DNA of 51,671 nt, the filler included, from Thelocarpon superellum (lineage: Eukaryota), in NCBI GenBank assembly GCA_026025795.1. It is 2 parts of 2 records of this genome, joined end to end, with 100 filler letters (N's around TTAATTAATTAA, not from the genome) between each part and the next. Parts side by side here need not be neighbours in the genome. Positions count along the whole stretch, not along the records: positions 1 to 25,801 come from JAPEUG010000263.1; 1 more part is not named here. One strand, given 5' to 3'. A model generated the notes under the pieces. The model saw only the letters and a list, made by a program, of their open reading frames with translations. It was not told the origin of the DNA and searched no databases. The translations under genes were made by a program, and so were the position numbers. Every line of letters begins with the position of its first letter. Position 1 is the stretch's first letter. Of the stretch, positions 979 through 25,801 are shown piece after piece.

Positions 979-1278
979 TCAGCGAATCTTCCCCGCTTCC
1001 CGGAGAAAGTCCTCCACATCCAGAACATTCACATCCGCCACCTGCGTCAAGCGGATGCGGCGGAGGTACTCGCTGATTTCGGCACAGATGCGCAGTTCCT
1101 CGTTACCGACATCGTCCGGTCCCACCGACGCCATGTGTTCGGCGTACTCCAGGTTCCACCGGTCGATGGTGATGATGGCAGCTAGCGCACAGTACCGCTC
1201 GTCCAGGGTCTGCGCCTCGCGCCACCGCCGCAGAGTGGCGGGCGGTAATTCACTGGCGGACTCGAAAAACACTGGCAT
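979..1278 (-). CDS. Small hypothetical protein (99 aa)
   Basis: Protein-like composition with GC-rich third positions; TATAAA-like box on the minus strand at ~1386-1391; no recognised family. Confidence 0.4.
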   Translation of the reverse strand: MPVFFESASELPPATLRRWREAQTLDERYCALAAIITIDRWNLEYAEHMASVGPDDVGNEELRICAEISEYLRRIRLTQVADVNVLDVEDFLREAGKIR

Positions 1279-1802
1279 GATACCTCAGCGGCTTCCCGTG
1301 GCGTGGTGTGGGCCGGGCAAGCCAGTCCTGTCGTAGTCCAGGAGCATAGGAACGAGAGCGGAGAGGGGGGGGAGAGAGGTCCACGTTTATAGACATAGCC
1401 CCAGGGACATGTTTCCCATGTTCGGGTCCGTCACGCATGAGATGCATCGGGCATGTGTTGGTACATTAAGTGAATAAGGCCAGATGCTGCAGAACAATCA
1501 ATTGCACGCAACGCAGAATCCCGCCACTCCTATGGTACACGGGTCCTTGGGCGACCCAACACGATGAGAGGGATGCAACGAGCATAGCCAACCGAAGACG
1601 CTTCTGCAAATCGGATGCGGGCCGCATTGGTCAACGCTGTGGGAAAGGGTAAAGGGTATTCAAAGAGACTCGTAGGCTCGGCCAACGGCTGAATAGAGGA
1701 GAGGTGGTCATGGGCCTCGCGATGCATCGAGTGGGGCAGGTGGGTAGGAGGTCGAGGGGCGTGGAGCGCCCTCGTCAGCTGGACGGCACGCAATCGTGGT
1801 GC

Positions 1803-6614: not shown

Positions 6615-7803
6615 ATGTCGCTGATCGCGGGACCCGGGAGAGGTGGGGTTTCTCACGAGGCGCCGAGCGCCCGGCAACTTCATGTCGAGAAACACGTGCG
6701 GTACATTCGGACCCTCGATACCGTGCGTGGCTGCTGGCGTTTGCGCTATCCTGGAGCTCCGCGAAAACGTTAACGTGCTGGCAGCGGAAAGACGAGCTTG
6801 AGTACTGGCTCACGGAGCACCTTCGGCTGAATGGCGTCTATTGGGGCCTGACGGCTCTCCACCTCCTCGGTCATCCCGACGCCTTGCCACGCAGCGACAC
6901 GATCGAGTTCGTGCTCTCTTGCCAACACGAGCATGGGGGCTTTGGTGCGGGCCCCGGTCATGATGCCCACATGCTGTACACCGTCAGTGCCATCCAGATC
7001 CTCGCCACCGTCGATGCCCTCGACGACTTGGATCGAAATGACCGACGGGGCCGCGTGAGGGTGGTCGAGTGTGAGTGAGCGTCGACAGCCCTCGTCTTCC
7101 ACGGGCTCGGGCCGACTGACGCCGCAAGGTAGACATCGCACAGCGACAAAACCGACAGACGGGGGCCTTTGCGGGGGATGATTGGGGCGAAGCCGACACG
7201 CGCTTCGTCTATGGCGCCCTCAACGCACTCTCCTTGCTGGGCCGTCTCGACCAGGTCGACGTGTCGGCCGCCGTCGCGTACGTGCAGTCTTGCGCCAACT
7301 TTGACGGAGGCTACGGGCTAAGCCCGGGGGCGGAATCGCATGCCGGACAGGTCTTCACGTGTGTAGGAGCGTTGGCCATCACGGGTCGCTTGGACCTCGT
7401 GGACCAGGAGAGCCTGGGTCGGTGGTTAAGTGAGCGACAGATGCCCGCGGGGGGACTGAACGGTCGACCGGAAAAGCTCGAGGACGCCTGCTATAGCTGG
7501 TGGGTGGGGAGTAGCCTGGCCATGATCGGCAAGCTACACTGGATTGACCGAGATCGCCTTCGCGCCTTCATCTTGGGCTGCCAGGACACTGATCATGGCG
7601 GCCTCGCCGACCGTCCCGGTGACATGGTCGACGTGTTCCACACACATTTTGCCATTGCAGGCTTGAGTCTGCTCGGGGACCCTGATTTGAAAGCCGTAGA
7701 TCCCATCTAGTGAGTCCCATCCCACGTCTCATGCCTTGGATCCTGACCCTGCTGCCTCAGTTGCATGCCGCGCGAGGTCACTCAACGTGTACTTGGCCGA
7801 TGA
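6615..7803 (+). CDS. BET2: Rab geranylgeranyltransferase (type II) beta subunit; exons 6615-6722, 6785-7070, 7133-7709, 7761-7803
   Basis: [75 protein letters not shown]; all introns are GT-AG and restore frame. Confidence 0.96.
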
Positions 7804-8526
7804 GAAGCATTCCCTTCGTAGGTCCCCCGATGAGTTCCTCCATGATGCCGTGCACGTCCGTGACGATACATGTGGTCCCTCTTACCATCTAATACCCCGC
7901 TTCTCAAATCCACTGTTGCTGCCGGGATACAATGTAAGAGGAGAAGAAGCCGGTGATGCCGTCCACACCCCACGCGCTTATCCGCGTGATGGTGAAACGG
8001 CTTGCATCTACATTTCGAAGACTCGAGCGAGCCTCCGTAGGTGTCCTCCTACTTTACCGCTGTACAGCAGTGCTGTATACTATCCTCATCACAACGGACT
8101 GGCCATACACAACGTGAAGAGCTCCTGCTTCAGGCTTCCCTACCATACCACGCATCGCTCCTTCGCCGTAGCGACCGCTTCTTCGGCCACGACACAGATG
8201 GCCCGCCATCGCCCTTTCTTCTTTCACCATGTTTTTTGCAGCGATGGCAGCCCTTAGTCTCAAGCACCGAGTCCCTACGGGGCCTGCTCCATCGACCCGG
8301 GTGGTGTCTCGCGTCCCACCCCTCTCGCTCGCTCATCTCCACTCCCTCTGCTCGTCTCTTCCTCACCTCTCACCCGCTTCTCACCTTTCCGTGCAGAGGG
8401 GAGATCGTCGTCTCTCCTCCTCATTGCTTAAGCTCCCCATAGCAAGTGCCCAGGACATTCTGACTGTAGCTTCCCTCTCCTCACAATCCTTACGACGGAC
8501 GCCAGACGCTCGTGCAAGCTCTCATC

Positions 8527-10409
8527 ATGGCCCACCATGCTATCGCTTCGATTCCGCTTCATTGCTCCATCTGTCCCAAAGACCCCAAGTTCAGCGACCC
8601 GTCTCACTTGCTCACCCACGTCGCCTCCAAGGGGCATCTCTCGAACCAGTTCAAGATCAGCGTCCGCACCTCGACCGACGTCACTGCCCGCGAGAAGTTG
8701 GCCAAGTACAATGCGTGGTACGAGAAACACGGCATCGAGAAGCTGCTCTCGCAACGCATGAAGAAGAAGGACGCAAAGCATGCCAAAGATCGCAAGTTTG
8801 CCGCCGCCAGCGCCGCCGCCTGTCACCAGGCAAGTGCTCATATGCCCAGAAACTCCGACTCTTCGCTCCACAGCGGTACGTCGGTAGTACTAACCGGACT
8901 GCGCAGGCCACGGTGGCCGCACGTCAGCCCAAGCGGGAGATCACCGCCGATTCTCCTAGTGCGCCGGCTGGCGAACGCCGTGCCCACATCCCCGTGCCCC
9001 GCATGCACATGTGGTCTGTTCCTGCACGTCTCTCTTCTGAGGAAGTCTTGGAAGCGACTGGCCCGGGCTCCACCGCGCCGTCCGACGGTGGTCTGTCGGA
9101 CTTTCACGCAGCATTTGGGGATCTCGCCGACGATCCCTTTGTTGTCTACCCCTCTCATACATCGGTCTCATCGTACACATCCAGCCTGGGGGACGATGTC
9201 GACGGGAAGTCGCCTGAAACGATGACACATGGCGGCGGTGACGTCCAGCTGAAAGGGGTGTGCTGGCCTGGCATGGACATCTTTGATTCGGCGACGCCGG
9301 AGATGAAGCGAAAGCGCAACCAAAAGAAGGACGATTCGTTAGCCATGCAATTGGAGATCAGTTCGACGCTCGTCGAGGCTACGGAACAAATGTTCGGCAA
9401 CGACGGCGATCTCCAGCAGGAACGGCCCATCTCTCGCCTGCTGGAGGACAGCCCAGGCAAGCCGTCGACGGGCACGAGTCGATCGTCGCAAGAGGCGTCG
9501 CAGATGGGCGTGCTGGGGAATAGCAACATCCACGGTATTCGATACAACGTGCCGGCTACGTCCCACGTGAAGACTCGCACGGGCGTCAAGCCGGGCCCAA
9601 CCCTCGAGACACAGCCAGGACATCGTACGGCCGCCGTTGGCCATACCGAGCCAGCCTCCTTCGGTCCGCGCGACGGACTCCCAAATGGATCGTGGGCGGA
9701 CGAGGATGCGGAGTGGCGCTTGACGTTCGGAACGCAGGGGAAGAAACGTGATCTGCGCATCTTCGAGGACGGCGATGGACCGGCGGATCAGAAGCCGGCG
9801 AAGATGGCTCGATCCGGGTTGTCCGAGGTGTCAACGTCGTACTCAGCTCGCGACTCCTATCACCTCCGACAGGCCGACAATTTCGCCTTCCTCAACGCCG
9901 GCTATCCGCTCTTGTCGCCTGATCTCCCGACCGGACCAGCATCGCTGTCTCATCCTTTTCATTCGTATGCTAGTGCTCATGCTGGCGGCAAGGAAAACGT
10001 CATGCCGCTCGAGGACGGTAGCTTTGGTCTCGTGGGCGACCCGACGGGATGGACCAGCCACGAGGCGACGGCGAGCTATCGTCCCCTGCCAGGCTCTCAA
10101 GGCCTCGACTATCACACGAACCTCCCGCGTCAGATGGACTTTGGCTCGTATCCCCATCTTGGAGGCTATACCTTTTCTAGCAACAATCCGTTGGCGTGCT
10201 CTTATCCGGGCCAAGCTGCACCACAGCTCTATTCCGATGAGCAGCGTTGCTCATCCTTCCATGTCGCTCCTCATCTGGCGCCGCGCTCTCGCCTTGGCTC
10301 TCACGATCACCACTCAACCTTGCTCGGATTCACAGAGAAGTCACGTGACGGATGCGCAGGCTATGGCAGCCACGATGACCACAGCCCGTCTGCCAAAAGC
10401 CTGGGATAA
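8527..10409 (+). CDS. Conserved fungal protein with N-terminal C2H2-like zinc finger; exons 8527-8829, 8907-10409 (GC-AG intron)
   Basis: IPLHCSICPKDPKFSDPSHLLTHVASKGHLS and LKGVCWPGMDIFDSATPEMKRKRNQKKD lie in different frames, joined by GCAAGT...TACTAAC...CAG. Confidence 0.85.
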
Positions 10410-10863: not shown

Positions 10864-11532
10864 TCATGGCTGATCCAAGACCCGAAAGACCGTCAGATTT
10901 TCGACCTGGCAATCTCGAGCAGGATCCATTGCGTCCGGAGGGCAGCCTAGCTCCTCGCGGATCTCTTCTCCCGTCATGCCTGGCTTTATGTTCATGCTCG
11001 CGATGATCATTGCCGCTTGCACGCACGAGGTTGTGTTTGAATCACCGGACGCCACAATGGCTTCAGGAGGCGAAACTCGAGTGGACTCTGGATGCGCACG
11101 ACGGACTTCGCACCTGCTCCCCCCTCCTTGATGTGGTAGCGACGGCGACGGCGGCGGCGGAGGAGCAGACGAGAACGCAAGGGGCGCGATGACACTGGCC
11201 AGCGTCGGCGTCGTCATTGTCAAAGGCAGATCATCCGCCCACCCCAGCCCGTCGACGCTCTCCTGGGTTTTCCGCGCCAGCACGGCGTCGATCTGCTGAG
11301 AAGTGACGCCTCGTTCGCTCAGCATATCGCGCAGACATTGATTTTCGCAGGCGACCTTGCGCGCCGCTGCCTGGAGCGCGGTGGAGGCTTCAACGCCGTG
11401 GAGTTCGTACTGGCGCAGTCGCTGCTGCATTTCTTGCATGTGCTCTCGGCGCCGCGTGCGTGATCGTCGCTGGTTCTCGCGGATCCGTCCGAGCTTGTTG
11501 CTCTGTGTGGCCATGCTTGCCGTGCCCACCAT
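10864..11532 (-). CDS. bZIP-type transcription factor (start at 11532 or 11514)
   Basis: Basic region RIRENQRRSRTRRRE followed by a coiled coil (AARKVACENQCLRDML); C-terminal TTSC..AAMIIASM...ELGC...CQVENLTVFRVLD typical of this fungal bZIP subgroup. Confidence 0.85.
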   Translation of the reverse strand: MVGTASMATQSNKLGRIRENQRRSRTRRREHMQEMQQRLRQYELHGVEASTALQAAARKVACENQCLRDMLSERGVTSQQIDAVLARKTQESVDGLGWADDLPLTMTTPTLASVIAPLAFSSAPPPPPSPSLPHQGGGSRCEVRRAHPESTRVSPPEAIVASGDSNTTSCVQAAMIIASMNIKPGMTGEEIREELGCPPDAMDPARDCQVENLTVFRVLDQP

Positions 11533-11540
11533 GCTCTTCG

Positions 11541-11564
11541 TTGCTTGCTTGCTTGCTTGCTTGC
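11541..11564. repeat. (TTGC)6 microsatellite just upstream of the bZIP start
   Basis: Directly visible. Confidence 0.9.
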
Positions 11565-12422
11565 TTTCTGGACTACTTCCACAGCTCGGGGTATGAGCGG
11601 AACGTTCCGTTTCCGATGGGCCCACTCGTGCCCCACATCACGTCCGTAAAGGAACGGGCTTTTCTTACTAAGAGTGCCGGATTGGCGACTCTAACATAGT
11701 GGCAAGCTAGACGGCGGACGCCGTGTTATATGTTGGCGAGTCTCGTTAAACGATCCGGGGTCGAGGAGCAACAAGGGAGCTGGTCCGGGTAACATAGTAT
11801 TACCACCAATTCAGTCATACTTCCCAAGCAGCAGCCGCCTAAGTTAATGCCAGCCTTGCGGGGCCGAGGATAAGAAGCACCCAAAAAGACCCCAGACTCG
11901 AGGCCTCCTCTCCACGGCCTAGCCGTCGTAGCCATCAGATAATGCTTGTCTCATAATGAGCTTAGCCTCCCATCGTGATAGGGAACGGGTTCGTGCTGAG
12001 CGCTGTCTGTCCAATTCAAATCTAGAGGTTGGTATTGAGTGGTCGCGGATTCTCGATCTGGAGCCTCCTCGGGACTAATCCGCTTGATAGGAGCCACGGG
12101 GCGGCATGAGTCAGCGCTAGCTGCAGCGTCAACATGGCTTCGCCGACGCGAAGCTCTCGAAGAGAACGACAATACTCGCACGCTACGTGTTCGGGCAGTG
12201 GCCCGGTGTCAGGATTGCAGGTCACGTGGACTACCACGTGATCCCTCAGCTCATACAACTAGCAAGTTCGCTCTAGCTTAGCTAGTTAGACAATACGATC
12301 ACTAGCTTCTACCTGAATAAAGGCCGAGAGCCTGACACCCGGTGATTCAGGGTGGTCAGGTTGCGGGCAGGGACATCCACGTCAGGGAGATCCCTGACCG
12401 AGCATCCTTCTGCGGATCATAG

Positions 12423-14025
12423 CTCGCCAACGTACTCTCTGGTGATCCATCAAACACCTTCACCGCCGCTCCATCCCTGGCCTGGGGCCTGTGCAAATAC
12501 TGTCGAAATTCGTTCCAGACGTTTCACGATGTAGCCGACAACGTGATGCGTCTATACGGCGTATTGAAAGAGACCGAGGAGTCCTACGAAAAGCAGCGTT
12601 TGAAATCCGAATAGAAGGCCCGTCTCAGCCTGCTGACGCAGGAATGTCACGACGTTCTTGGAGGTCTTCAGGATGTGCGGGACAAACATGAGGGCATGGG
12701 TCCCATTTCACAATTGCCGTGTGATAGGATGGAATCCGTACAACTGGTGGTAGCCGACATCAGACAGCGGATGACCGCGGCGGAGGGGCATCTCACTGCA
12801 TTCAACGGCAGCATCTTCCTGTAGGTTAGGTCGACCTTGGACAGATGGTACACATGACTGACGATATGCACAGTTCGTCTCAGAATCGCATCGAACGTAT
12901 CCTGCTCACATTCATCGGCGAGGCTCGGGAAGGACGACACGAAGATTCCGTGCGATCGTTCCCAACGTCCGACTCCCTGTCCGGCGGAGACCCGGCAGCA
13001 TGGCGTCAGATTCGAAAGAAGCGGGAGACCATTGGCATCTCCTTGGCGTTGTTTCTGGAGCACAAGGACTTCATTCTGGGAACGTTGGAGAAAGCCAAGG
13101 TAGAAGGCGCGTCCGATGGACTGCCGGCAGACGAGATGATCGAGATGGAGACGGCAAGCCCACCATCCAAAGGTGTCTTGTGGAACACAGAGGTAGATAT
13201 GGAGCTTGGAGAGCTGCAGGGCGGCCCGGAGAGTTGGGACAACCGAGCGAAAGCAGAGCACCACAACGAAACGCAGTGACGCATCTGCCCCACCCGCTCT
13301 GCTACCAGAGAAATTGGAAGCGCTTGCTCGGGCCGAAAGGGTACCAACCAGCTCGGCGCCATCAGCCGAGGCATCGGTAGTGTCAAGCGACGATCCCAGA
13401 AGACGCGCTGCCCGCAACATGCCGGATCCACGCTTCGTGTTCGCGTAGGCACGCCAGAGCCTAATGAACCGGAAGCTACAATCGGCCTTGCAATGTGGCG
13501 AATGGGAAAAGGTGACAAGTCTAGTGCAGACCGGGGCAGATGTCAATATGCGAAGCGACAAGGGGAACTATGCCATCTACCAAGCAGCAGAGGCGGGCAA
13601 AGAAGCCGTCGTGCAGTCAATGCTGGCTCGTGGAGCCCATGTGGACGTGCAAGATGAAGGAGGGTGGACGGCACTGATGATTGCAGCCGCAAGTGGACAG
13701 CCAGACACGATGCGCACTCTCCTGCGTCATGGGGCCAGTCTGGACGAAGAAGACTGCATTGGAGATGCTGCGCTTATCCATGCGGTGCAGTATCACAAAG
13801 TCCGGTCTGCCCGGCTCCTGATTCTCCACGGTGCCGATACCAACGCACACGGTAGGTTGGGCCAGACATCTCTGATGAATGCAGTGACAAAGTTCGACCG
13901 TTTTTCTTTGGGTAGCTACTACATCAGGGTGCAGACACCCAGGTAAAGGATACGCACGGGTTGCCTGCAATGTATTGGGCTGTGAAGCTGATATGGTGGA
14001 GCTGGTGGAAGCTCGCATGCGATAA
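12423..14025 (+). pseudogene. Decayed gene: N-terminal HeLo-like/SesA-like helical domain plus C-terminal ankyrin repeats
   Basis: LAWGLCKYCRNS..F..V...V..LYGVLKETEE and SSQNRIERIL..AWRQIRK..ETIGI; intron 12821-12873; ankyrin repeats from 13464 (GADVN, GWTALMIAA, GQTSLMNA, GADTQVKDTHG); in-frame TAGs at 12612, 13446, 13913; frameshifts; no in-frame ATG. Confidence 0.75.
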
Positions 14026-14967
14026 GGTTCGAGGCGTCAGACACGCCACCGCCCATCGCTAGCTGCAAATCATGTCGGTGGGACGAGGGCAGACAGTAGG
14101 CATCATCCATCCGTCTCGTCAGAAGAGTCATCAGAAGGGAGCGTGGCGGAGACAGATTTCGGAGGTGAATAGTAGTTCCTAGCCGCTAATAGTTAGATTC
14201 GTTCCTATTGTTCGCATTGTTGAGCCAAGTAGCCGACGAGCTTAGTAAGGTAGGTACCCGTACTTGTGCGAAGGGAGACTTCGTCCCATTCGCCCAATAG
14301 ATAGCTAGAAGCCTTAGTCTGGCTTCTAGCCGACAGTATACTCTGCCCGGCACCGGGCGCTTGTCTATGACAGAGGCGACTCCTCCCGTGTGACACCGGT
14401 AGCCAAGCTCCAGCTACCAGCAGTCTCCCGTAGCTCTTTGTTCATCGAACCCCGCGCACCAACATACGTACTCGTACCCGGCAGCCCCTTGCTCGGCACC
14501 CAACACCCCGTTTGCATTGTCTGGAACCAGCCCAGGCCCGGCCAGACCAGGCTGGACTTACGATAGGTACAGATGCTGCTGCACATGCGCGGCACTCGGC
14601 GAGGGCGATGGTGATACGGGGTGGCAGCGCACCAATCGGAAGGCAGCCGGACGAGCAGGGATCACGAGGGATGGAAGCCACACGGAGGGGGAGGGAGGGA
14701 TCGAATCCCGGCTGATTGGCCTGATGACTTTGGTGTGGGCGCGTACGAGAGGTGCCACGCTACAAGTGCTCTGCGGCGTGCTGCGAGAGATGCATCACAT
14801 TCCATCGGGAGCTGTTCAACGACCATTCCGCGTTGCGTAGCCTGGCGCGGGTCGCAGTAGTCTCCCCTCGACGCACGGCGCACGGCGCAACAGTCGCCGT
14901 GCCGGCTCCCCGGCCCGGTGCGCGCTCGCGCTTCCGATCAAGATGCTCCGGCGCAGAGGGAGAGGAG

Positions 14968-14973: not shown

Positions 14974-15210
14974 TCGAGGCAGCAACGGCCGGCCCTCTCC
15001 AAGTGGACCTCCGTTGACAAGCCGTCTGCGGAGCTGCTGTGACTTGGTACTGTCTTTCGCGTCGTGGAGTGAGCGGTCGATACGGACGGAAGCCCGAGAC
15101 AACGATCCCATCCTTCACGCCTTCACGACCTGCCCACCCGTTTCCCTTCCTCCCTTCTACGGCCCACCACACGGTAGCGTTCGTGTAGAGGGTACACTGG
15201 GCCCGGCAGG

Positions 15211-16113
15211 ATGACCGAGCTTGCGGGCGTCATGGTCGGGGGCATCGCGCTGGGGACTCTCTTCACGGAATGCGTCGACTGCTTCGAGCACGTGCAGCTG
15301 GGCCAGACGATTGGGCCCAACTACCGTCGAGGAATCCTCCGACTGGACATTGCGAGACTGCGCTTCACGCGCTGGGGCCAATCGGTGCACATCAACGACA
15401 TTCCCGGGGCGGGGCTGCGACAGCATCATGTGGTGGTGGCGACCAGGGAAGAACAAGGCTTGGTGAGGGACCTGCTGGGCCAGATCTTGGTCATCTTCAC
15501 CGAGACCCGGCAACTCTCCGAGACCTTCCGAGTGTCCGCGAGGCCCAAGGACCTGGCCGTCGTCGACGCCAACACCGCGCTGGAGCCGGGGGTGAAGGCG
15601 CTGCACCACACGATGCGGGTGCTGTCGCTTCAACGACAGAAACGAGCGAGCCCGGCCCCGAGAACCAAGTGGGCGCTGTATGAGGAGAAGCACCTGGACG
15701 ACTTGATCGATCAGGTCGGCACTCGAGTGGACCGCCTGATCAATCTGTTCCCGGCGGCACAAGGCTTGCAACGCACCGAGTGCGAGCGTGAGGTCGCGAC
15801 CATGGATTGCCACGCGCTGCGCGCCCTGGACGGCGTGGTGAAGGACGACAAGCTGCTCCAGGAGGTGTTGGATCAAGACGTGCAGCGTGCGCAGAGCACC
15901 TACAAGAGCGTCAAGGCATTCGACTACGCCACGATGCAGCTTGGAGAACAAGTCAACGACGGCTCCATCACGAACAACCGTGACTATCATTTTGAGGACC
16001 TTTCCGCCGCTGGTCGCTCCGTCATCCAGGCCGGTGCGACCCTGGGCGGCATGAGCATTTTTGAGCTCCAACGCCGGACTCCCGTTGTCGTCGCCGCGCC
16101 GGCAACTATCTAG
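15211..16113 (+). CDS. HET-S-like HeLo-domain (prion-inhibition and propagation) cell-death protein with C-terminal HET-s-related amyloid motif
   Basis: MTELAGVMVGGIALGTLFTECVDCFEHVQLG..LRLDIARLRFTRWGQSV.IND aligns without gaps to the HET-S N-terminus as recalled; RQK..RTKWALYE..L..LI..L..LFP; two 20-aa pseudo-repeats plus a GG-xx-IF tail; intronless and intact. Confidence 0.92.
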   Translation: MTELAGVMVGGIALGTLFTECVDCFEHVQLGQTIGPNYRRGILRLDIARLRFTRWGQSVHINDIPGAGLRQHHVVVATREEQGLVRDLLGQILVIFTETRQLSETFRVSARPKDLAVVDANTALEPGVKALHHTMRVLSLQRQKRASPAPRTKWALYEEKHLDDLIDQVGTRVDRLINLFPAAQGLQRTECEREVATMDCHALRALDGVVKDDKLLQEVLDQDVQRAQSTYKSVKAFDYATMQLGEQVNDGSITNNRDYHFEDLSAAGRSVIQAGATLGGMSIFELQRRTPVVVAAPATI

Positions 16114-16942
16114 CATCACCAGCGGTAGCCTAGATGCCTGCGGTAGAGGGTGCATGCAGATCTCTAGCTAGCCGGGCATGACCGGGAGCAATGTCTATCT
16201 TCGAGGCTCTTTCTTAGCTAAGCAATGTTTAATCTTCACGGGAGCCCACCCTACCACGTGACTACTCAACGCCGACGATGTCGAGGGGCATTACTGAAGT
16301 GCCTCCATCTCACATGTCCAACCCTGGACTTACCAGGGCTGTAGCTGGTTGCTGGTGGACGGTAAGCCCATCACTACCTGTGTGCTTCCTTACACTGTGA
16401 GACCAAACCAAAGTAGCCTTGCTGCACGTGACCAACCACGATCTGCGGGGCCCCTCCTTCGCTAGGAGTTGGTAAAACGTCCGTCACCTCCCACACGTAG
16501 GTGCCGTGTCAGCTGTCCTGGTTCTGCTTGCCCTCCATCTACCCAGGTTGCGGAAGCGAAGATTGCGTTGTGATTTGACCGCTGTGGTATGATTGCTTTC
16601 CGGAACTCCACGTACAAAAGATTTTGTCGAATATTTAATAGAACCGAGTCGAATATCTCGTCGCTCAACGCAGGAAATGATGGCCATGTTGGTACAGCCT
16701 TTCGATTCAATCGAGAGCGCTCGAGCTAGATCTAGAGCACAAGAAGCCCATGATCGCGGTTTTCTATAGCCCTCTCAATGGCCGACTGGAAGGCATCCTC
16801 TTCCGGCGCCGGATGTACCCGTGGTGTAGGGAATGACGCACCACATGGCCCACCACATGGCCTGGTACGTTCCTTCTGTCTTCCGTGCATGTGCCTTCCA
16901 TATCTGGCTCATGTTCTTGCTCCTGTGACAAGCATCACAATC

Positions 16943-17780
16943 ATGAAGAAAGAAGGGGACATACTGTCCCTCCTTCATCATCTCCCACAGTCGTCTCACA
17001 GGAGCCGATCCAGGAGATGTTACCCCATCCGTCGACCACGAACGGGACGCTCGATCGATCCGTCGACCCATTCATCCCGAACCAGCATCGACGGCACAGA
17101 CCCACGACTCTCCCACCCCACCCTCTCACGTATCCTCCTCGTCTCGCTCGACAAGGACGACTGGCTCGACTGCTACTACGCGCCACTACTGGGAGGAATT
17201 GACGCGCGAGCCGAGCGTTACTGGGCCAAGCAAGCCGTCTTCGTCGACCAATACCTCGCAGAGTACAGGCCACGCGCCGTCTTCGTCACGGACGGCGCAC
17301 TGTGCGTCGACATCTACCGCAGCTTGCTGGAGTCACTGGTGGCGTACGTGTGGGGCGGCGGCACGGTGGTGTTTGGGGCGCAGTTCAGCAGCCAGATGCG
17401 GCCGGCGGACCTGTCAGACTTCTTCCGGGGGGGCCTGGGGCGTGCCGTGGTCGTGTGGGCCGGTTCAGCATACAATGGTGCATTTGCATGCCGTCATGAG
17501 GCCCGCGTGGCCGAGGGTGAGATTGTCCGGCTTTCCCGTCACGGCGCTGTTCCTGAAGGATGTGGCCCGCCTCGATGCCGTTTAGCGCCCCACTCATTCT
17601 TCCGTGGTGGATAATCCGGTGAATAGGCGCGGGCCGGCGGATGTCAATGATGCCGCGGTGGCGTACGCGCGGGTCGGGTGTGGGTGGTTGGGCTATGTGG
17701 GTGACATGAACCATGGTCCTGCGGGTGACCTCACCATCTTGAACCTGTTTGGCCTGCTGTTGCGGCCGCCGAGGCCGTAG
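16943..17780 (+). pseudogene. Interrupted conserved fungal hypothetical protein (GGTVVF / GYVGDxN family)
   Basis: Reads P.AVFVTDGAL..LVAYVWGGGTVVFGAQFSS..FF / WGVPW..ALFLKDV..* ..AAVAYARVGCGWLGYVGDMN..ILNLFGL; +1 frameshift in the G7 run 17427-17433 and in-frame TAG at 17583; start uncertain. Confidence 0.7.
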
Positions 17781-18026: not shown

Positions 18027-18110
18027 CCGTCCGTCCGTCCGTGCAGCTCCATCCCATCAAGACCAAGTGGCCGGAGAGAGACACGTGCCATGCCATGCCA
18101 TGCCATGCCA
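18027..18110. repeat. (CCGT)4 and (TGCCA)5 microsatellites downstream of the RhoGEF
   Basis: Directly visible at 18027-18042 and 18086-18110. Confidence 0.85.
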
Positions 18111-18337
18111 TTCCATCCATTCCACACGCCACGCAAAAGGCCAAGGGGGAATCGCCGCAAACCAGCACACGCAAGTCCACATCGCGCCGGCGAAATCACA
18201 CCAATCATGATGCACGAACCTGGAACACAATTCGAAAGGCGCACGGCCACGTCCACGTGGCACCGAGAGAAGACTGCACATCGACGTGGTAACGAGAAAG
18301 AAGAGAAAGAAAAGTCGGACCCGACGTGACCGGCCCA

Positions 18338-21300
18338 TCACGAGTCATTCGTCAGCTTGGCGAAATGCTTACACCATAGCCATCCCATCGTCTGCGTCCG
18401 GTCGTCCTGGTTGCGAGCTAGCCAAAGCTCGCCCTTCTCGGCGAGGACGTCGAAGATCTAGTCGATCGAGTCAGTCATGATGCGTCCATATGGGATGCGG
18501 GGATCGAGGAACAACGCACCTCGCCCTTGACATAGGTCAGATACGGATATCCCGCTTCCATCCGCGATCGATCGATGTTGAACTCATCAATGCTGGCCGT
18601 CGTGAAGAGCACATGCGCCTTGTCTGCCGTGAGGCGAGGCGATGCCGTGCGCGATGGGTGGGGCGACGAGCGTGGGCTGTCGGACATGGGCATCGCCGAC
18701 GAGAACATGCCCGAGAAGGGCCGTTGCGCCGGCGACGGTTGCCGCGCCGGCCCGTCCGGATTGAGCGAGAAGTACGACGTTGAACCCGACGCCGGACGCG
18801 TGTGCACCGATGAGGTCTCGGTGCTGGGTCGCGCGTAAGGGGCCTGGTCCATGCCACTCGGTCCGGCACTGGTGCTGGGTCGCGCCGTGTTGCTGGGCGT
18901 GTTGGACGTGGCTGGAGTCATGGCGTAGAAGGACCGAGCATGCGACGATACGTCGGGCGTCAGCGGCCCGCCCTGGCTGGACGACTGATTCGAGCTGGCC
19001 CGGGTCCGATCCGTGCGGACCGGCGGGAGCCCATAATGGGACGCGCCGAACAGGGGCTGCGTGCCGTCGATCATGGAGGGCGGCATAAAGCTCCCACTGT
19101 GGCGTTGGCCAAAGTCCGGCGCCGGGAGGACGGGGGAGTGGCTGCTGTTCACTGATCGCGTGCGAGCCTTGCCGCTGAGCGGAGGACCGTGACGTCGGAA
19201 GGAGGCTTCGTCCGCCGTCTGCGCCTTTTGCACCGAGAGCAACTGCGCTGAATCGGCGAGCATAGAGCCGTTGCAGATGCCCAAGGCGTGCACCTGCGCT
19301 TCCGTAAAGGCAAAGTCCCCGGCAAATTGCGTCAGGATGTCCGACACGCTCCGCGGCACCTGATACTCGTCCAGGATGGACTTGCTCTTCTCCTGCCAAA
19401 CCGTGTACCACTCCGCCTGCAGCTGGATGAGATTGCACAAGCATGCCTCCGCCAGCTTGCTCGTTAGCGCGTACAGGCGAGGCAGCTCCTCCTTCAACGT
19501 GTCGTTCAAGGCCATGAACTGTTCACCTTGCTCCTGCGTCCGCTTATCCGGCTTGTCGCCGCGGTCCTTGACCCCCTTGAACCGCGCGTAGTCCATGATG
19601 CGCTTGTTGCGTTTTTGGATGATCTTCTGCGGCGCGTCGTACAGCTTGACCAGCGTCTTCATCGGCCCGATCACGCTCTTCTGCACCCCCGTCCGGTGCT
19701 CGGTCAGGGCGACGGTGGCGAGCTCGCGCATCGCCATGCCGAACTTGCGCCATTTGCTCTCCATTTCCGGGTAGTTGCTGCGCTCGACCTTGATGAAGCC
19801 TTCGATCGCCGCCACGTACTCCATGAACCGGCCAACGAAGACCTGCGTCTCCCCGAGGTACTTGTCGACATCCGACATGGCAAATTGCAGCTGGATCACG
19901 TGCGAGTCCCACTTCTCCGCCACCTTGTTGAAGTCGAGGTCGTCGAACATCTCCGACAGCCCGACCTGTTGCTTGAAGCGTTCGGTGCGGCGGCCGAAGG
20001 CCTTGGACAGGCCGGTGCGCACGTCTGATTCCTTGCGCTTCCGGCCCACGGCCTGCTCCACCAGGTGCACGCGCTTCATCAAGTCCTCGATCCGCGACGC
20101 CACGGCCTTCATCTCCCACAGTGCCACGTCGAGCGCGGTATAGTCGGGGTGATCCTCGGGCGTCGCCTCGGAGAGGGCCTCGAGCAGGAGTGGATACTTC
20201 AAGATGCGCTGCATCGGCTTGACCATCAGCGAATCGAGCGACCAGGTGTCTGTCAGGTCTTCCGCGTGGCTGCGACACTCGTTCAGCCAGAGCACGACAC
20301 CGGGCACCGCCTGGAGCTTCTGCAGGCGTGTGTTGGCCCCCTCGAGATTGCGCAGGTACTCGCTGTACACCTTTTCCAGCCGCGACATGTGCTGCCCAAA
20401 GGCCTCTCCGATGAACGTCTTGCGGTCTTTCTCGTCGTCCGTCAGCTCCATGCCAATGGCCGGCGATCCACCGTCGTCAGGCCCACCGCTGCTGGACGTG
20501 GCAACGCTAGCACGTTTGTTGCCCGTCAGAGCGCTGATCTTCTTGACCACGTAAACGCTGGAACCCCCTTGCCGAAGCGCGTCGAAGAAGGTGAGCGAAA
20601 ATGCCACGATCTGGTCAATGTTGCCGAATAAGACCTTGACGTCATCGGCCGTTACAGCTGCACACGCATTGGACGTGCCCTTGTAGATTTCTTCCGTCAC
20701 CTTCATGTCGCCGTGGAAGAGCTTCTCCGTGTCGAGCAGCTCGCGAATGATGTGCCGGCGCTTGGTCAGCCGCCGCTGTTCCGGCGTCGGGCTGGCGTTG
20801 GCGACGGCTGGCTCCGCCGATGCGACGGGGGCTGCGGCGGGAACGGGGCGCGAGGTCGACCGCGGCGGCGGCCCCGGCGTCGCGGTGGAAGAGGTGACGA
20901 GTGAAGAGCCCTCGCTAGCGCGGAAGCGCGCCCCATTCGCCATGCCCTCGGGGAAGACGGAGGGGAAGATGCTCGAGCCCGGGTCTTTACTGTATAGGCT
21001 CGGCGACGGGGGTGTACGCATCGACGGGACCTGTCGTAGCCGGTCGGAGCGATCCTCATCCGTCGATTGGGTAGGTGGGGGCGGGGGCGAGTGATCGGGC
21101 AGTGGCGGGGGGGAGGGGAGGGAGAGCTCAGGCGCAGACGGCTCGGACAACACCAGTCCCAGCCCTTCCCCTGGGGAAGGAAGCTGTGGGAGATCGGGCG
21201 GAGCGTGCGTCAGGGGTTGCGAGGTCGGGGGCACCCCTCGGTCTGGCAAAATGCCGACCGCTTGTGACGCGCTCCAGTCCTTTGGGGGAGGCGTGGGACG

Positions 21301-24300
21301 GTAGTCGAAGCGGAGGTTGCTGTCGATCGGGCTATCGGCGGCCTGCGGGTGGATCCAGTCGACGATGGACGGCGAAGCATCCATCCAATCCGTTGCAAAT
21401 TGTAAGCTGGCGCTATGCATCACGGGGATGTCCTCGGGGACCCGAACTCCCGTCACCGCTGCTGCGGGATCGGTCCCGGGGAGCTCAAATACCGCCGTCG
21501 GACGCTCAGCCTCGTCATCGGTCGTCGCACGGTCCACAGATATAGGCGGCGCCCCGTCACCGTCGCGGGTCGCGCCACGGGGGCCTGCGGCTTCATCATC
21601 CGTGCTGGGCGGACCGAGCCGGACCGGGTCGTGAAGGCCGACGCGCGGTGGCGTAGCGGGTCGCGGCGCCTTGTACCGTCCACGACTCAGTTCCTGCAGA
21701 TAGAGCTGCGTCACGCGGGTTGGATCCCATCCGCCCTGGCGTGCAAGCTCGGGTGACTTGTGCAGGATCTGCTGCTTGAAGTCGTGAAACATCTCGGGGC
21801 TGGCGATGCTCGGGGCGTGATATTGCTCGAGGACCCGGTTGATGGTGCTATAGGCATCGCTATTGAGGGTGGTGTGTCCCGAGTGGCCTTCGTGGGCATC
21901 GTCGCCAGACCAGCGCTGGGAGTTGCGCGTGTAGGAGGTGGGTTGCGTGGACTCGCTCGAGGCGGCCGCTTCGTCGGTGCGACCCATCAGCGAGTCTCCT
22001 TCGTGGTCAGAGGCTTGTCGGAGGCGCGGGCTGGAGCCATAGGAATCCACGCTCCAGCGAGACCGGAAGTTCTCCGTGTACGATGGCAAGACCGCCCGCT
22101 TGACCGAGACGTAGTTGGTGGGCTTGTCTGCCGGACGCACCAGGACCGGACTCTCGCCGAGCATGATCTGGATGGATTCTTCATCGTCACGGTCCGATCC
22201 TGAGGCTTGGGAGCATTGGGAGCGCGTGGGACTCGACGGGCTTGACTCGCGCAGTTGGAGCACCTGGCTGAGCACGGTCCGATGTCGCGGCGGCGAGCGT
22301 GTCCGGTCCAGCTGCGGTTGTTCCGTCTGCGGCTCGTTCTCGATGGGCGTCACGGCCGTCTCCGCGGTTTCGATGGTAACTGCTGAAGTCGGCGTCCGGT
22401 CCATGCCCTGCGCCTCGTCGACCGGCACGCCCAAGCTGCTCCCGGCGCCCTGGGACTTTGGGGACCGCATCTGCGTATCGAGGGTCAGTCGACGGTCGGC
22501 TCGGACGGCGTCCGGGTCACGCGCCGTGGTCTCCACCATCTCGGGCTGCTCGGGAGCCCAGGGCTCGGACGTAGACAGTTGATGTTGCTCCTCGCTTGTC
22601 CCCTCGGGATCATTACCACCGGCCAGCCCCGCGCATTCGTTAGCTTTACGCTGATCAAAGAGACGGCGACGCTCGGCGCGATTCTCGTCTTGCTTCTCGC
22701 GTTCACGCATGCTGATGGTGAAGGCCCGCTGGATGCGCTCGCGCCGTGCAGCGAAGTCAACGCCACCAAGCTCAGGAATATGTTTGGTCTTGGGTGCGCT
22801 TTCGCTACCGCGGCGTCGACTTGGATGGCGGGGAGGCCGTGGGGGCGGAGTGCTCTCGGATGTGTCTACCGCCTTCGCGCGGGAGCTAGCCGTGGTGGCA
22901 GAAGAAACGGGCTGACGCGGTCGCGAGCTCCTCAGAGGCGGCGACATCTTGGCCGGGGGTGCGGAGATGAAGGCCTTCAGGCGTGGACTGGTCCCGCGCT
23001 GGGATGTCGGATGTAGCTCGGGACGTCTTGAGGTGGGGGTGAGGTTGGCATTGGTGGTGGTATCTTTCGAAGAGGGCGGGTGCCGTTGCGACTGCGAGAG
23101 GTAGGAGGCTTGAGAACGTGAGGACGGCCGCGCCATGGCTACACCCATGCCCGCCACGCCAGTCGACGCTGCAGCGGACGCTGGGTCGGGAGAGCTGGTC
23201 AGTGAGCCAACGCTCTCCACCGCCCTGACCTGCGTGTTGTCCAGAGGGGGTACGGGCTGCTCGGGAGGGCGGCGACCGTCGCGGTCCAAGGTGGAGCGGT
23301 TAGCATGGGGATTCATGGCCGCCGTGCCGGCAAAGTCGCTTCGCGTTCGGCGGTGAAGCCGACGGGCGGCGGCTGATCGGTCCGAGGCCTCGTCGTGATC
23401 GGGGAGAGAGAAAGGGTTGCCCATGTACCAGTCCCGAGCGGCGGGCGGAGAGACGCCGGCGTCGGAACGACTCTTCCGATGAGCGCCCGGCGCCAGGTGC
23501 GGGGAGCTCCCATCAGAACCCCGTCGCTGTCGGCCGGGAATCCCATAGCCTGGAAGAGGAGGCGCGGCGGCGGTACTGGAGGGGAGAACTTCGCCAAAAA
23601 GCGGTCTTCGCGCCGACTCGTTCTGAGCGAGATGCAGGCTCGTCATCGACTGCGAGGCCCATGGATTGTTGGCGACAGACGTTCGTGATCTCTCGCCCCG
23701 GTGCCCACGATCCACGGAGGTCCGCCTCGCTTGTACCTCCTCGAGCGTATTCTTCCGCCGGCGCGGCGTCATGGCCGCGTCCGAGGTCCGCTCTCGCGGG
23801 CGATTGCTCTCGGTCGACTTGCTTCCAAGATCGGTGGGCCGCTCTGCGTTGGACGACTTCCTCGGGCGCCCCGACGATGCGCTCCGGCCGTTGGCCGGTG
23901 GACGAGCCTTGGTGGTGGGCGAGGGACCTTCATGATCCTGATTGAAGCGGTTCACGAGATCCTGGAGGGAGGTCTGACGCGCACGCGGTGGGTTGTTGGA
24001 GGTAGACTTGGCCCGGACGGTCGAGGAGGAATACTGGGTCGCGGCGGGGGCACGCGGCGGGGGAGGGTACTTTCGGCTCTGGGCAACGGAGAGGAGGACG
24101 GTGGGCTCGGACGGGCGGGTGGCAGTCGTCATGCCGTCACGTAGCTCGCGATCGCTCCGAATGTCGAGATGCTGGGTGAAGCCCGGGGCCTGGCCGGTGA
24201 AGGGGTCCTTGAACTGACGGTAGAAGTCGTGGGGATCAGACGGATCGTCGTGGGCGGGTGGTGCGTGGGTGGAGGGGGCGTAGGAGAGGGCATGGACGGA

Positions 24301-24606
24301 GCGGTCGAAGGGGCGGGCGGACAAGGGCGACGAGCGGGAGGGGGAGCGGCGTAAGGCGTAGGTCGTCGGAGCCGGAGACGGTGAGGGCTCGGGCGAGGGT
24401 GGAGATGACTGGGAGGCGTGTAGACGTGGTCGTCGGGCATCGGTGGGCGGCGGTGACGAGGGTGCCGGGGGTGGTGGGGACGAGCGACGGCGCGCCGGGG
24501 CGGACCGGGGGAGATTGTGGGGAGGGTAGTCGTAGGTTGGGTGGGTGGATCGGGCGTCGTAGAAGGATTGGGGAAAGAAATTGTGGTCCAAGTTCCCTGA
24601 TGCCAT
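18338..24606 (-). CDS. Rho guanine nucleotide exchange factor, DH + BAR + SH3-like (dynamin-binding protein/Gef1-like); intron 18458-18519
   Basis: KRRHIIRELLDTE..LDSLMVKPMQRILKYPLLL (DH), helical BAR region (LNDTLKEELP), terminal exon IFDVLAEKGELWLARNQDD..GWLWCKHF; first ATG at 24606. Confidence 0.93.
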
Positions 24607-25801
24607 GCTGGGAGCGGTGGAATGAAGGGCATGAAGTTGGCCTTGCTCAGTGGTCAGTCGTGGAGACAGCGCGCGCGTTGTAGTCGAGCGAGGCCCAACG
24701 AGTCCCACGGTACCGATGAAGGTACGGGTACGGGTACGGCGGACCGGACAGTGGATCTTGGTGCGAGATGGCACCAGGGACCAGTAGGCGTTTGGTATCT
24801 GGATGGGCAGTGGTCTCGTACGGGTACTCGGACTCGCCCTCGCTGGCGCGCACGGCCACTGGGCAGGTCCTATTCCAGGAAGCTACCCGCCGCGGTACGA
24901 GGATCAATCCGGCGGCACAGCGGTACGGAGACTCGCTGAGTGCGACGGCTCTCCGCGCCTCCACTTCGCCCTGATGTTGCCGGCACCACAGCCGACCCTA
25001 CTGGTACGGGCACGTCGGTGCTGGACCTGGGACGAGCGAAGCGATCGTGTATTCGAACGAGGACATGCCGGTCGCTCACCAACCACGGTGGCAAGGGCGC
25101 TTGGCGATGAGGTGGCCAACGGACTTCTCTACACGAGTCGTCCACGATCCACCGGCCACGATCCACAAGTCGCCCCCGGTGCCCTGTCGTCGGCGGTGGC
25201 GGAATGTGAGTGGTGGGACGCAAGAAATGGTCGTCGGAGCATGAGCGACGCGGGCGATGACGACCAGCGAACGCTGACCCTGCTGCACGGTACGAAGTAG
25301 TTACCCCCGTACGAGGAAGCCTGCCCAGGTGGTGGGGACCCTACAAGTCGCAGTACGAAGTTCTCAGGGACGAGTACTATATGACGAGTAACTCGTCCCG
25401 GGCACGGCGCTGGCCGACAGCAGCGTAGGTCGAATTCGGTTCTCGCGAAGTCGACCGCGCTGCGGCGAATCAACGCTACGGGCTGGAGGAAGACATTCCA
25501 AGAGCGGTGGACGTTTCATGCGACGCTCACTCGGCCCGATGGCCTTGGACGGACCAGTCAGTGCGCCCTTCCTTGCAGGACCCGACCTTCCATCAGACGC
25601 GTATTACGCCTCAGAGGTCTGCATGTAAGCACCGCCCGGCATCGAGGTCCTGGAAGTCGCTTTGCCATCCGAAGCATTTCCCGTGGGCAGTCGGCAGTTT
25701 CTCGGATCAGTATACCCTGTCGACGTCCGCGTCCGCTGTCCTCCGTCCCAAGAGTCCGACGGAGTGCGTTGCCAAGCTGCCCAGCCCATTCCTTGGCAGT
25801 G

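Follow-up and report, generated by a model that had tools for sequence, protein, structure and literature searches.

Can a HET-S-like executioner of cell death still be triggered when no receptor is encoded beside it? This question is raised by a gene at 15211-16113 (plus strand) in a window of 51.7 kb, by which we mean the whole stretch of DNA that was analysed. The window covers 15.2 kb upstream of the gene and 35.6 kb downstream. The gene is an intact single exon that runs from ATG to TAG and encodes a HET-S-family protein of 300 residues, with a HeLo domain followed by a two-repeat amyloid domain. It is an ordinary new, divergent member of its family, and its trigger domain is somewhat unusual. 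On balance we favour the reading that the protein is intact but divergent and is amyloid-triggered by a partner encoded elsewhere in the genome.

The protein belongs to the HET-S family from end to end. A search at E<=0.001 finds 1144 relatives, and the best of them (self excluded) are 33-37% identical. These relatives align over their full length, for example residues 1-290 with residues 1-287 of a 293-residue protein, and many alignments reach residue 284-290. The original prediction of an intact HET-S-like frame of 300 residues holds. The GC3 of the gene is 0.80, against 0.70-0.78 for the intact genes of the window, and it is 0.73 in the part that encodes the amyloid domain.

The HeLo domain occupies residues 6-199 (15226-15807, plus strand). 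It had been predicted, and an HMM search confirms it. PF14479 matches at E=2.2e-39 with 135.8 bits against a cut-off of 23.2, and the match covers profile positions 1-197 of 205. The HeLo-like domain PF17111 gives no match in the protein at E<=1. This sets it apart from HELLF and HELLP of Podospora, which are amyloid-controlled membrane-targeting executioners paired with NLRs and have the HeLo-like domain (PF17111) instead of HeLo. A sequence search of the PDB at E<=1 returns 3 distinct sequences, each a 'small s protein' (2wvn_A, E=8.2e-35; 2wvo_A, E=3.7e-33; 2wvq_A, E=1.5e-31). The AF2 model of the protein has a mean pLDDT of 86.8. Foldseek gives at least 500 matches to this model at E<=10, of which 4 are at E<=0.001, and every one of these 4 is a HET-s/HET-S N-terminal domain chain. 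Their TM-scores, normalised to the target, are 0.88-0.92, with 2wvq_A at 0.92 (E=1.4e-14). The two-domain plan is shared with HET-S/HET-s of Podospora anserina, where the prion-forming domain is residues 218-289, and the lengths are near-equal, but identity across the structural alignment is only about 32-33%. Three conserved HeLo positions are altered when compared with 61 relatives in a 62-sequence alignment. These are R32 to Q (R or K in 53/61), F34 to I (F in 50/61) and Y27 to H (Y in 46/61).

A hydrophobic N-terminal helix had also been predicted. No 19-residue stretch of the protein is more hydrophobic than residues 4-22 (15220-15276, plus strand; mean Kyte-Doolittle 1.73). These residues form a candidate membrane-inserting helix, a role that is suggested by HET-S in the excerpted text of PMC3531502. 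AF2 places a helix at residues 14-27, with low confidence at residues 1-9, but E20 and D23 interrupt the hydrophobic segment. It is worth considering residue 23 more closely, as well as residue 33. Residue 33 is Thr as predicted (codon 15307-15309, plus strand), and in the PDB alignments its counterpart is Pro in HET-s (2wvn) and His in HET-S (2wvo). Death competence had been argued from this residue. The Pro is indeed absent, but the argument is too simple because residue 23 matters too. According to the mutants described in that same excerpt (PMC3531502), H33P alone disables HET-S, the conversion of HET-s to HET-S requires D23A plus P33H, and TM prediction in HET-S/s follows residue 23. The codon of residue 23 (15277-15279, plus strand) encodes Asp, aligned to Asp of HET-s and Ala of HET-S. 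At residue 23, 28 of the 61 relatives have D, 20 have E and none has Ala; at residue 33, 17 have N, 14 have H, 10 have S and 3 have T, and Pro does not occur. Asp23 is as in HET-s and Thr33 fits neither allele. Since D23A and P33H are both needed, Asp23 is present here and the family is spread at both positions, Thr33 tells us only that the disabling Pro is absent.

The two-repeat claim is supported by the published HRAM pattern, which has hydrophobic residues at positions 5, 8, 10, 16 and 18 and Gly at 19. Both R1 (AQSTYKSVKAFDYATMQLGEQ; residues 227-247, 15889-15951, plus strand) and R2 (RDYHFEDLSAAGRSVIQAGAT; residues 257-277, 15979-16041, plus strand) fit it. At the five hydrophobic positions R1 has Y, V, A, M, L, and R2 has F, L, A, I, A. 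When the last 95 residues are shuffled, at least two non-overlapping hits appear in 70 of 20000 shuffles. R1 and R2 are in register with r1 and r2 of the 61 relatives. The arc glycines are G245 of R1, in a column that is Gly in 60/61 relatives, and G275 of R2, in a column that is Gly in 61/61; the column of G268 of R2 is Gly in 46/61. The inter-repeat loop (residues 248-256, 15952-15978, plus strand) has 9 residues, and this falls inside the range of 6-18 that an excerpt of PMC4518210 gives for 154/155 published proteins. The repeat starts are 30 residues apart, compared with 36 in HET-s (226, 262). The C-terminal tail (16042-16110, plus strand) contains a diglycine plus an aromatic residue (LGGMSIF...) and is extended by about 16 residues. 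Its two GG columns are Gly in 51/61 and 42/61 relatives, and the column of F284 is F in 27/61 and W in 8/61. HET-s depends critically on the corresponding aromatic loop, as stated in the excerpt of PMC4055769. At position 6, R1 has Lys and R2 has Glu, which is the charge pair of the first HET-s salt bridge (K229/E265), and position 17 is Gln in both repeats like Q240 of HET-s. Two repeats of 21 residues, the arc Gly, the hydrophobic core and the diglycine-aromatic tail are likewise shared with HET-S/HET-s. The HRAM proteins of PMC4518210, as excerpted, also have the Gly at 19, the hydrophobic positions, two repeats and a Gly/aromatic tail.

Three results go against the repeat claim. The BLOSUM62 similarity of R1 to R2 is within chance (reached by 697/2000 shuffles). 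The Pfam family HET-s_218-289 (PF11558) gives no match at E<=10. A repeat HMM made from 83 repeat units of 54 relatives puts the HeLo ORF at the top of 1340 window ORFs, but at E=0.22 it is too weak to discriminate. HET-S/HET-s differ from the protein with respect to PF11558, which 15 of the 62 aligned proteins match; about 75% of HRAM proteins in the PMC4518210 excerpt are unmatched too. With the family alignment AF2 builds two matching rungs at a 30-residue offset with pLDDT 89-95, with strands at 230-232 and 241-244 in R1 and at 260-262 and 271-274 in R2. When the C-terminal domain is modelled alone without an alignment it is helical (mean pLDDT 52.2), and the two-rung model is thus alignment-dependent. 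A complex prediction for three copies of residues 220-292 scored 0.01 against a mark of 0.32, in a run that left the family alignment unused and in which the chain fold is uncertain; it counts neither for nor against the solenoid. At E<=10 the C-terminus finds only noise in Pfam. The C-terminal 90 residues find one irrelevant match in the PDB at the same threshold (ALKBH3, E=0.93), and the HET-s fibril entry is absent.

There is no NLR in the window. A Pfam scan of 267 window ORFs, which left out the 34 shortest (100-108 residues) of the 184 remaining ORFs of at least 100 residues, found no NACHT, NB-ARC, WD40 or TPR domain. No Walker A motif is found in 11.6-18.4 kb. A tblastn search with 12 NACHT/ANK proteins gives nothing below E=0.069 outside a set of ankyrin repeats discussed below. 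A six-frame search found no credible r0 copy resembling R1 or R2 in the flanks. The best six-frame match outside the gene (1261-1323, plus strand) is a chance one. It sits 14 kb off in a 47-codon frame without an ATG, it is matched by 3/300 shuffles, its tblastn E-value of 0.38 is equalled by background, and there is no similarity at the DNA level. The window also has no tRNA genes. The genes that flank the HeLo gene and its upstream neighbour lie at 10.9-11.6 kb and 16.8-17.8 kb. The original prediction was right that the flanks hold no NACHT/NB-ARC gene and no matching R0, but the weight it laid on the missing neighbour was misplaced. Daskalov et al. 2015 (PMC4518210, in excerpt) report an adjacent NLR for only 98/155 such effectors and describe the clustering as 'common but not systematic'. 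The gene is thus like the other 57/155, and being unpaired is not unusual. Non-adjacent NLR-effector pairs have been discussed or proposed in the excerpted part of PMC9815663, and a literature search on 'orphan' HeLo effectors found nothing about the present case. When compared with NWD2/HET-S NLR-effector clusters the effector half is present and is of the expected kind. What differs is that the NLR half and r0 are missing from the window, no nwd2-like gene adjoins, and the neighbour is an ankyrin-repeat gene that appears to be broken and has no NB domain.

Since neither an NLR gene nor r0 lies within the 15.2 kb upstream or the 35.6 kb downstream, any trigger must be encoded elsewhere in the genome and act in trans. 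The protein is probably triggered in this way, or else its partner has been lost. We infer that an unlinked NLR partner exists. By homology the protein would be soluble and harmless until it is seeded. The usual seed would be the one r0 motif that an oligomerised NLR carries at its N-terminus, and it would template R1 and R2 into a two-rung beta-solenoid. This refolding would destabilise the HeLo domain and free the N-terminal hydrophobic segment. The freed segment would then insert into the membrane and oligomerise, and the cell would die. By analogy with HET-S we would expect this protein to form amyloid and to be toxic.

The amyloid domain has atypical residues that the original prediction overlooked. 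R1 has S at position 3 and E at position 20, and R2 has Y and A there. Neither repeat has the N, Q or H expected of an HRAM at position 3 or the D or N expected at position 20. Position 3 defines the HRAM subclasses, with N in HRAM1, Q in HRAM2 and H in HRAM3 (PMC4518210), and the pairs found there in the 61 relatives are HH in 29, NN in 10, QQ in 4 and SY in none. We took positions 3 and 20 in each repeat as ladder positions and counted N, H, D or Q. The protein has 0/4 such residues. No relative has 0, while 3 have 1, 7 have 2, 11 have 3 and 40 have all 4. Position 15, where HRAMs prefer Arg or Lys, is non-basic in both repeats (T241, V271), which is also the case in 9/61 relatives, and both polar pairs are missing in 6/61. 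The two anomalies together, ladder loss and a non-basic position 15, occur in 0/61. The protein differs from HET-s in having neither the Asn ladders nor Arg at position 15. The HET-s double mutants N226A/N243A and R238A/R274A abolish prion function (PMC4055769, as excerpted).

These residues bear on the likeliest of the alternatives. It holds that the gene is an orphan in drift, which lost its receptor and whose amyloid domain is no longer constrained. Triggering would then be poor or gone, and the gene would be turning into a pseudogene or being re-purposed. The complete loss of ladder residues seen in no relative, the two non-basic positions, and the null phenotype of the corresponding double-alanine mutants of HET-s in the PMC4055769 excerpt all point this way, as do 51.7 kb without an NLR and neighbouring genes that look damaged. 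However, all 300 codons are intact, and GC3 falls below the range seen in intact genes neither overall nor in the amyloid part. The most important features of HET-s are retained, namely the arc glycines, the hydrophobic core, Gln 17 and the diglycine-aromatic tail. The basic residues at position 15 and the polar pairs are not absolute requirements of the family, since 9/61 and 6/61 relatives do without them. We consider drift a real possibility, but an unlikely one.

The same residues could be read without decay. The amyloid domain may be a distinct HRAM variant with a co-evolved unlinked NLR, or this may be a pair that is coming apart, with an ankyrin relic next to an intact executioner. The variant solenoid would do without Asn/His/Asp ladders and without Arg at position 15, its residues at positions 3, 17 and 20 being Ser/Tyr, Gln/Gln and Glu/Ala. 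We regard this reading as improbable.

The ankyrin relic deserves its own discussion. The original prediction overlooked this gene (12423-14062, plus strand), which lies 1.1 kb upstream of the HeLo gene. The prediction had held that an NLR or NLR remnant within 11.6-18.3 kb would make this a conventional pair. No NLR is found in that interval by tblastn, but the ankyrin gene sits there and appears to be broken. Its N-terminal region is helical, and its ankyrin repeats lie at 13449-13943 (Ank_2, E=2.6e-20). There are in-frame TAGs at 12612-12614 and 13446-13448, the exon-2 frame stops at a TGA at 13277-13279, and the sole in-frame ATG ahead of the first TAG is at 12546. There is one good intron (12821-12873). 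GC3 is 0.59-0.67, and RIP indices of 0.47 and 1.32 mean that there is no RIP signature. The gene is probably a pseudogene, but this is not certain since two introns with weak donors (12561-12614 and 13100-13448) could skip both TAGs. Its N-terminal piece, with X at the stop, has a weak match to SesA (PF17107, E=0.04), scoring 14.5 bits where the cut-off is 26.3. SesA is a domain found on NACHT NTPases. The N-terminus was also tried as a relative of HeLo, and hhalign against the HeLo alignment gives a probability of 0.6%, which does not support such a relation. The exon-2 piece has 0 matches to longer proteins among 431 candidates and no usable match in the Atlas. The linker-plus-ankyrin piece finds 188 generic ankyrin proteins, none of which covers the linker, and this is uninformative on an NLR origin.

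One can imagine a scenario in which this relic is what remains of the cognate NLR of a conventional pair, minus the nucleotide-binding domain and r0. It directly adjoins the HeLo gene on the same strand, and such pairs occur according to the excerpt of PMC3321046. The C-terminal repeat that annotated fungal NLRs carry most often is ankyrin (42% in the excerpted survey of PMC4986451). The in-frame stops, the lowered GC3 and the weak SesA match would fit a ruined receptor. However, the relic has no NB domain (neither NACHT nor NB-ARC matches) and no Walker A motif, its N-terminus has no r0-like motif, and the SesA match is under the Pfam cut-off. The roughly 115 codons between the N-terminal region and the repeats are insufficient for an NB domain. 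All 118 HSPs in 13380-14100 come from the ankyrin-rich parts of the 12 NACHT/ANK proteins, and elsewhere none is below E=0.069. The best ankyrin matches are generic as well, at 30-40% identity and from all kingdoms, and leave the linker uncovered. In NLRs that signal through r0, this motif normally replaces the effector domain (PMC3321046, in the excerpt). We give this scenario little credence, and the ankyrin gene and the HeLo gene may be unrelated.

It is also very unlikely that the locus is one of allelic incompatibility or of a prion, in the manner of het-s/het-S. Here this allele, or another in the population, would propagate as a prion and would cause death when it meets the toxic allele on fusion, and no NLR would be involved. 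An NLR-free window would be in line with this, and the incompatibility of [Het-s] with HET-S is independent of functional NWD2 in the excerpted text of PMC4344463. However, the Pro at residue 33 is absent here and from 61/61 relatives, the het-s prion allele is described as derived from the HET-S toxin in Podospora, and the residue pairs required for HET-s prion propagation are missing (PMC4055769, as excerpted). Least credible of all is a gene that does not work, either a frame that is open by chance or a relic without expression: both neighbours do appear damaged and long frames arise easily in GC-rich DNA (the antisense frame is open for 336 codons), but full-length homology to 1144 proteins, a confidently modelled HeLo fold, 36/36 invariant columns of a six-sequence alignment kept, and a GC3 of 0.80 in the sense frame against 0.66 in antisense all speak against it.

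We return to the reading that an intact but divergent effector is triggered from elsewhere in the genome. Its gene is a natural sequence without the residue pairs whose replacement by Ala kills the prion function of HET-s. If the C-terminal domain still forms a solenoid that can be templated, then the sequence rules of this fold are looser than HET-s mutagenesis suggests. If it forms no solenoid, then it illustrates the drift of an effector that has become unlinked from a receptor. Either outcome would be incremental, since many unpaired HRAM effectors are already known.

The HeLo gene (15211-16113, +) runs from ATG to TAG through 300 codons with no interruption, so the 300-residue intact ORF of the original prediction is borne out. 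Its GC3 is 0.80, against 0.70-0.78 in the clearly intact genes of the window, 0.66 in a 336-codon frame antisense to it and 0.57-0.61 in the flanking intergenic DNA. The antisense frame (15157-16167, -) has no Pfam match and is not a gene but a mirror frame of the kind expected in GC-rich coding DNA. The proposed family assignment also holds, as the Pfam HeLo profile matches residues 6-199 nearly end to end (E=2.2e-39). In the PDB just three sequences match at E<=1, all of them constructs of the HET-s/HET-S N-terminal domain (8.2e-35 to 1.5e-31). The AlphaFold2 model, for which 61 relatives were aligned, is confident (mean pLDDT 86.8, pTM 0.79); Foldseek gives it four PDB matches at E<=0.001, every one a HET-s/HET-S HeLo structure (target-normalised TM-scores 0.88-0.92). 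HMMER, run exhaustively, finds 1144 relatives at E<=0.001, 421 at 1e-10 and 40 at 1e-30. The closest of them, self aside, are just 33-37% identical, and many alignments extend to residue 284-290. The window holds no second HeLo copy.

Residues 4-22 are the most hydrophobic of the protein, in agreement with the predicted N-terminal segment. Residue 33 was correctly read as Thr; the PDB sequence alignment sets it against Pro33 of HET-s and His33 of HET-S. The idea that this residue is a switch between toxic and non-toxic forms simplifies the published genetics. The mutants described in PMC3531502 indicate that H33P alone disables HET-S, but a toxic HET-s needs D23A and P33H together. Residue 23 here is Asp. 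Of the 61 relatives in the alignment, 28 have D and 20 have E at residue 23, and none has Ala; at residue 33, 17 have N, 14 H, 10 S, 8 K and 3 T, and none has Pro. The allele logic of Podospora therefore cannot be transferred residue by residue. Thr33 tells us one thing only, which is that the disabling proline is absent. The protein also departs from its relatives at three conserved HeLo positions, with Q32 (R or K in 53/61 relatives), I34 (F in 50/61) and H27 (Y in 46/61).

For the C-terminal domain the yardstick is the HET-s-related amyloid motif (HRAM) of PMC4518210, in which position 19 is Gly and positions 5, 8, 10, 16 and 18 are hydrophobic. The motif usually occurs twice, with a loop of 6-18 residues between and a Gly/aromatic segment after. 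The pattern is found twice in the HeLo protein, in the 21-residue repeats R1 (residues 227-247, AQSTYKSVKAFDYATMQLGEQ) and R2 (residues 257-277, RDYHFEDLSAAGRSVIQAGAT), which are separated by 9 residues and followed by a tail starting LGGMSIF. When the last 95 residues were shuffled 20000 times, at least two non-overlapping matches arose in 70 shuffles and at least one in 2646. The comparative evidence is stronger than these statistics. In an alignment of the protein with 61 of its relatives, Gly fills the column of G245 in 60/61, of G275 in 61/61 and of G268 in 46/61; the two tail GG columns have it in 51/61 and 42/61, and the column of F284 has F in 27/61 and W in 8/61. At position 6, R1 has Lys and R2 has Glu, like K229/E265 of HET-s, and position 17 is Gln in both, like Q240. 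(Position numbers in the 2014 paper PMC4055769 are those of the HRAM scheme minus two.) The AlphaFold2 model places matching strands at 230-232 and 241-244 in rung one and at 260-262 and 271-274 in rung two, an offset of 30 residues at pLDDT 89-95.

Several results count against the repeats. R1 and R2 are no more similar by BLOSUM score than chance (697/2000 shuffles). Pfam PF11558 does not match the C-terminal domain even at E<=10; this profile matches just 15/62 of the aligned proteins, and 38/155 of the published set according to PMC4518210. An HMM of the repeats made from relatives alone ranks the HeLo ORF top of 1340 window ORFs, yet at E=0.22. Folded without an alignment the domain is helical (pLDDT 52), and therefore the solenoid model owes more to the family alignment than to the sequence of the protein itself. 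The doubled pattern and the conserved arc glycine columns speak for the two-repeat domain.

GC content is high throughout the window (0.56-0.66 in 2-kb steps), whose ORF families are eukaryotic and fungal-type by Pfam: it identifies RRS1 (50-688, +), a RhoGAP (1806-2723, -), a prenyltransferase alpha-alpha toroid protein (6593-7707, +), a RhoGEF-BAR protein in a frame of 2135 codons (18478-24882, -), a DHX29-like helicase (26724-31112, -), a HIT/zf-C2HE protein (31364-32122, +), an SH3-WW-RasGEF protein (33481-36834, -) and a 'fungal specific transcription factor' domain protein (44626-46928, +). The HeLo gene has housekeeping and signalling genes around it (RRS1, RhoGAP, prenyltransferase, RhoGEF-BAR, DHX29-like helicase, RasGEF), in a region neither repeat-rich nor NLR-rich. 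No tRNA genes were found in the whole window. A 257-codon frame at 10864-11637 (-) has by eye a basic then leucine-rich stretch reminiscent of a bZIP region, with no Pfam match at E<=0.01. The Ser/Pro-rich open frame at 8172-10409 (+), 745 codons without a Pfam match, holds a single Walker-A-like string that looks accidental. Short microsatellites lie at 11541-11566, (TTGC) x6.5, and 18086-18124, (TGCCA) x8. The gene downstream of the HeLo gene (16778-17780, +) is of unknown family, with no Pfam match and only weak Atlas leads to ThuA/LBP_M-like clusters (0.85-0.87). Its frame changes within a seven-G run (17426-17432), which could be a true frameshift or an assembly error, and its TAG at 17583 is probably inside a 69-nt intron (17517-17585).

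An NLR partner was sought in the flanks, which in the window amount to 15,210 bp upstream and 35,558 bp downstream across two parts that need not be neighbours in the genome. The Pfam scan covered 267 stop-to-stop ORFs: 34 long ones from the whole window, 83 of at least 45 aa from both strands of 11.7-18.5 kb (excluding frames that overlap the HeLo ORF), and the longest 150 of the 184 remaining ORFs of at least 100 aa. None of the 267 matches NACHT, NB-ARC, WD40 or TPR, and the sole NTPase-like signal is a sub-threshold nSTAND3 match on the helicase P-loop. The interval 11.6-18.4 kb contains no Walker A motif. With 12 NACHT/ANK proteins as tblastn queries, 118 HSPs fall in 13380-14100, all from the ankyrin-rich parts of the queries, and the remaining 83 all have E>=0.069. 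A position-specific scan of all six frames with R1 and R2 for r0, the single amyloid motif at the N-terminus of a partner NLR, gave one outlier, a 21-residue peptide resembling R2 (LEKHWHDTSAASRGVVWAGQA; 1261-1323, +). It scores 48, the reversed-sequence maximum being 37, and 3/300 shuffles reach it. We reject it as chance: it has no ATG, its frame is 47 codons, it is 14 kb off, and its tblastn E of 0.38 is equalled by background matches. The peptide lies between two convergent genes. On these scans the original prediction of no NACHT/NB-ARC gene and no matching r0 is sustained.

This absence is real within the window but ordinary. Every HET-S homologue analysed in 2012 adjoined a STAND gene (PMC3321046). 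The 2015 survey gives an adjacent NLR for 98/155 HRAM-bearing HeLo-type proteins and calls the clustering 'common but not systematic' (PMC4518210), and a 2022 study explicitly examined signalling between non-adjacent genes (PMC9815663). Given these surveys, unpaired HET-S-like genes, and even partner decay, are already established observations. A literature search for 'orphan' HeLo effectors found nothing on this case. We lean, modestly, to a functional HET-S-type executioner triggered in trans as the most likely reading.

The main rival is an orphan effector whose amyloid domain is drifting, which we think rather improbable. The amyloid domain is atypical in its composition. Position 3 in the relatives is H in 36 and N in 10 of 61 for r1 (the counterpart of R1), and H in 30 and N in 14 for r2; position 20 is D in 42 and N in 16 for r1, and N in 30 and D in 19 for r2. 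The HeLo protein has S and Y at position 3 and E and A at position 20. Its count of N/H/D/Q over these four polar positions is 0, a value seen in none of the 61 relatives (1 in 3, 2 in 7, 3 in 11, 4 in 40). Position 15, for which R or K is preferred in the family, is T and V here; 9/61 relatives lack a basic residue there in both repeats, and 0/61 combine this with the polar-position anomaly. By the mutants in PMC4055769, N226A/N243A is inactive and R238A/R274A null in HET-s, and the harshest single changes hit the arc glycines and the aromatics F286 and W287. The domain retains the features most important in HET-s, but is naturally without two residue pairs that HET-s cannot lose without losing its prion function.

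One can also imagine a ruined adjacent NLR. A gene-like stretch overlooked in the original prediction (~12423-14062, +) ends 1.1 kb upstream of the HeLo start. It has a helical N-terminal region, a well-formed 53-nt intron that keeps the frame (12821-12873, +; GTAGGT...CAG), and then a second coding stretch, a linker and ankyrin repeats (13449-13943, +; Ank_2 E=2.6e-20). A TAG at 12420 precedes the first frame and another at 12612 cuts it; its single in-frame ATG is at 12546 and there is no usable start codon. A TGA at 13277 closes the second frame, and the ankyrin frame, a different one, is preceded by a TAG at 13446. GC3 is 0.59-0.67, close to intergenic values, and the stretch has no RIP signature. 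We regard it as a probable pseudogene, and just probable because both TAGs might in principle be skipped by way of two introns with weak donors. That it is a receptor remnant is conceivable since ankyrin is the commonest repeat type in annotated fungal NLRs (PMC4986451). The N-terminal piece, read through with X at the stop, has a sub-threshold match (E=0.04, 14.5 bits vs a 26.3 cut-off) to SesA, an 'N-terminal domain on NACHT_NTPase and P-loop NTPases'. However, a nucleotide-binding domain is absent and the ~115 codons between the domains leave no room for one, r0 is absent, database relatives of the ankyrin part are generic, and searches with the other pieces found nothing. The finding that would have refuted the original prediction, an NLR or NLR remnant within 11.6-18.3 kb, was therefore not made, though a remnant keeps a small probability. 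We consider a ruined receptor quite unlikely, and the stretch may have no connection with the HeLo gene. A het-s-like allelic or prion system, also raised in the original prediction, is very improbable.

The HeLo protein is a new, divergent member of a known family. The sole mildly unusual point of the locus is an amyloid domain without the ladders or the position-15 basic residues, and this is compatible with either a variant with different rules or drift.
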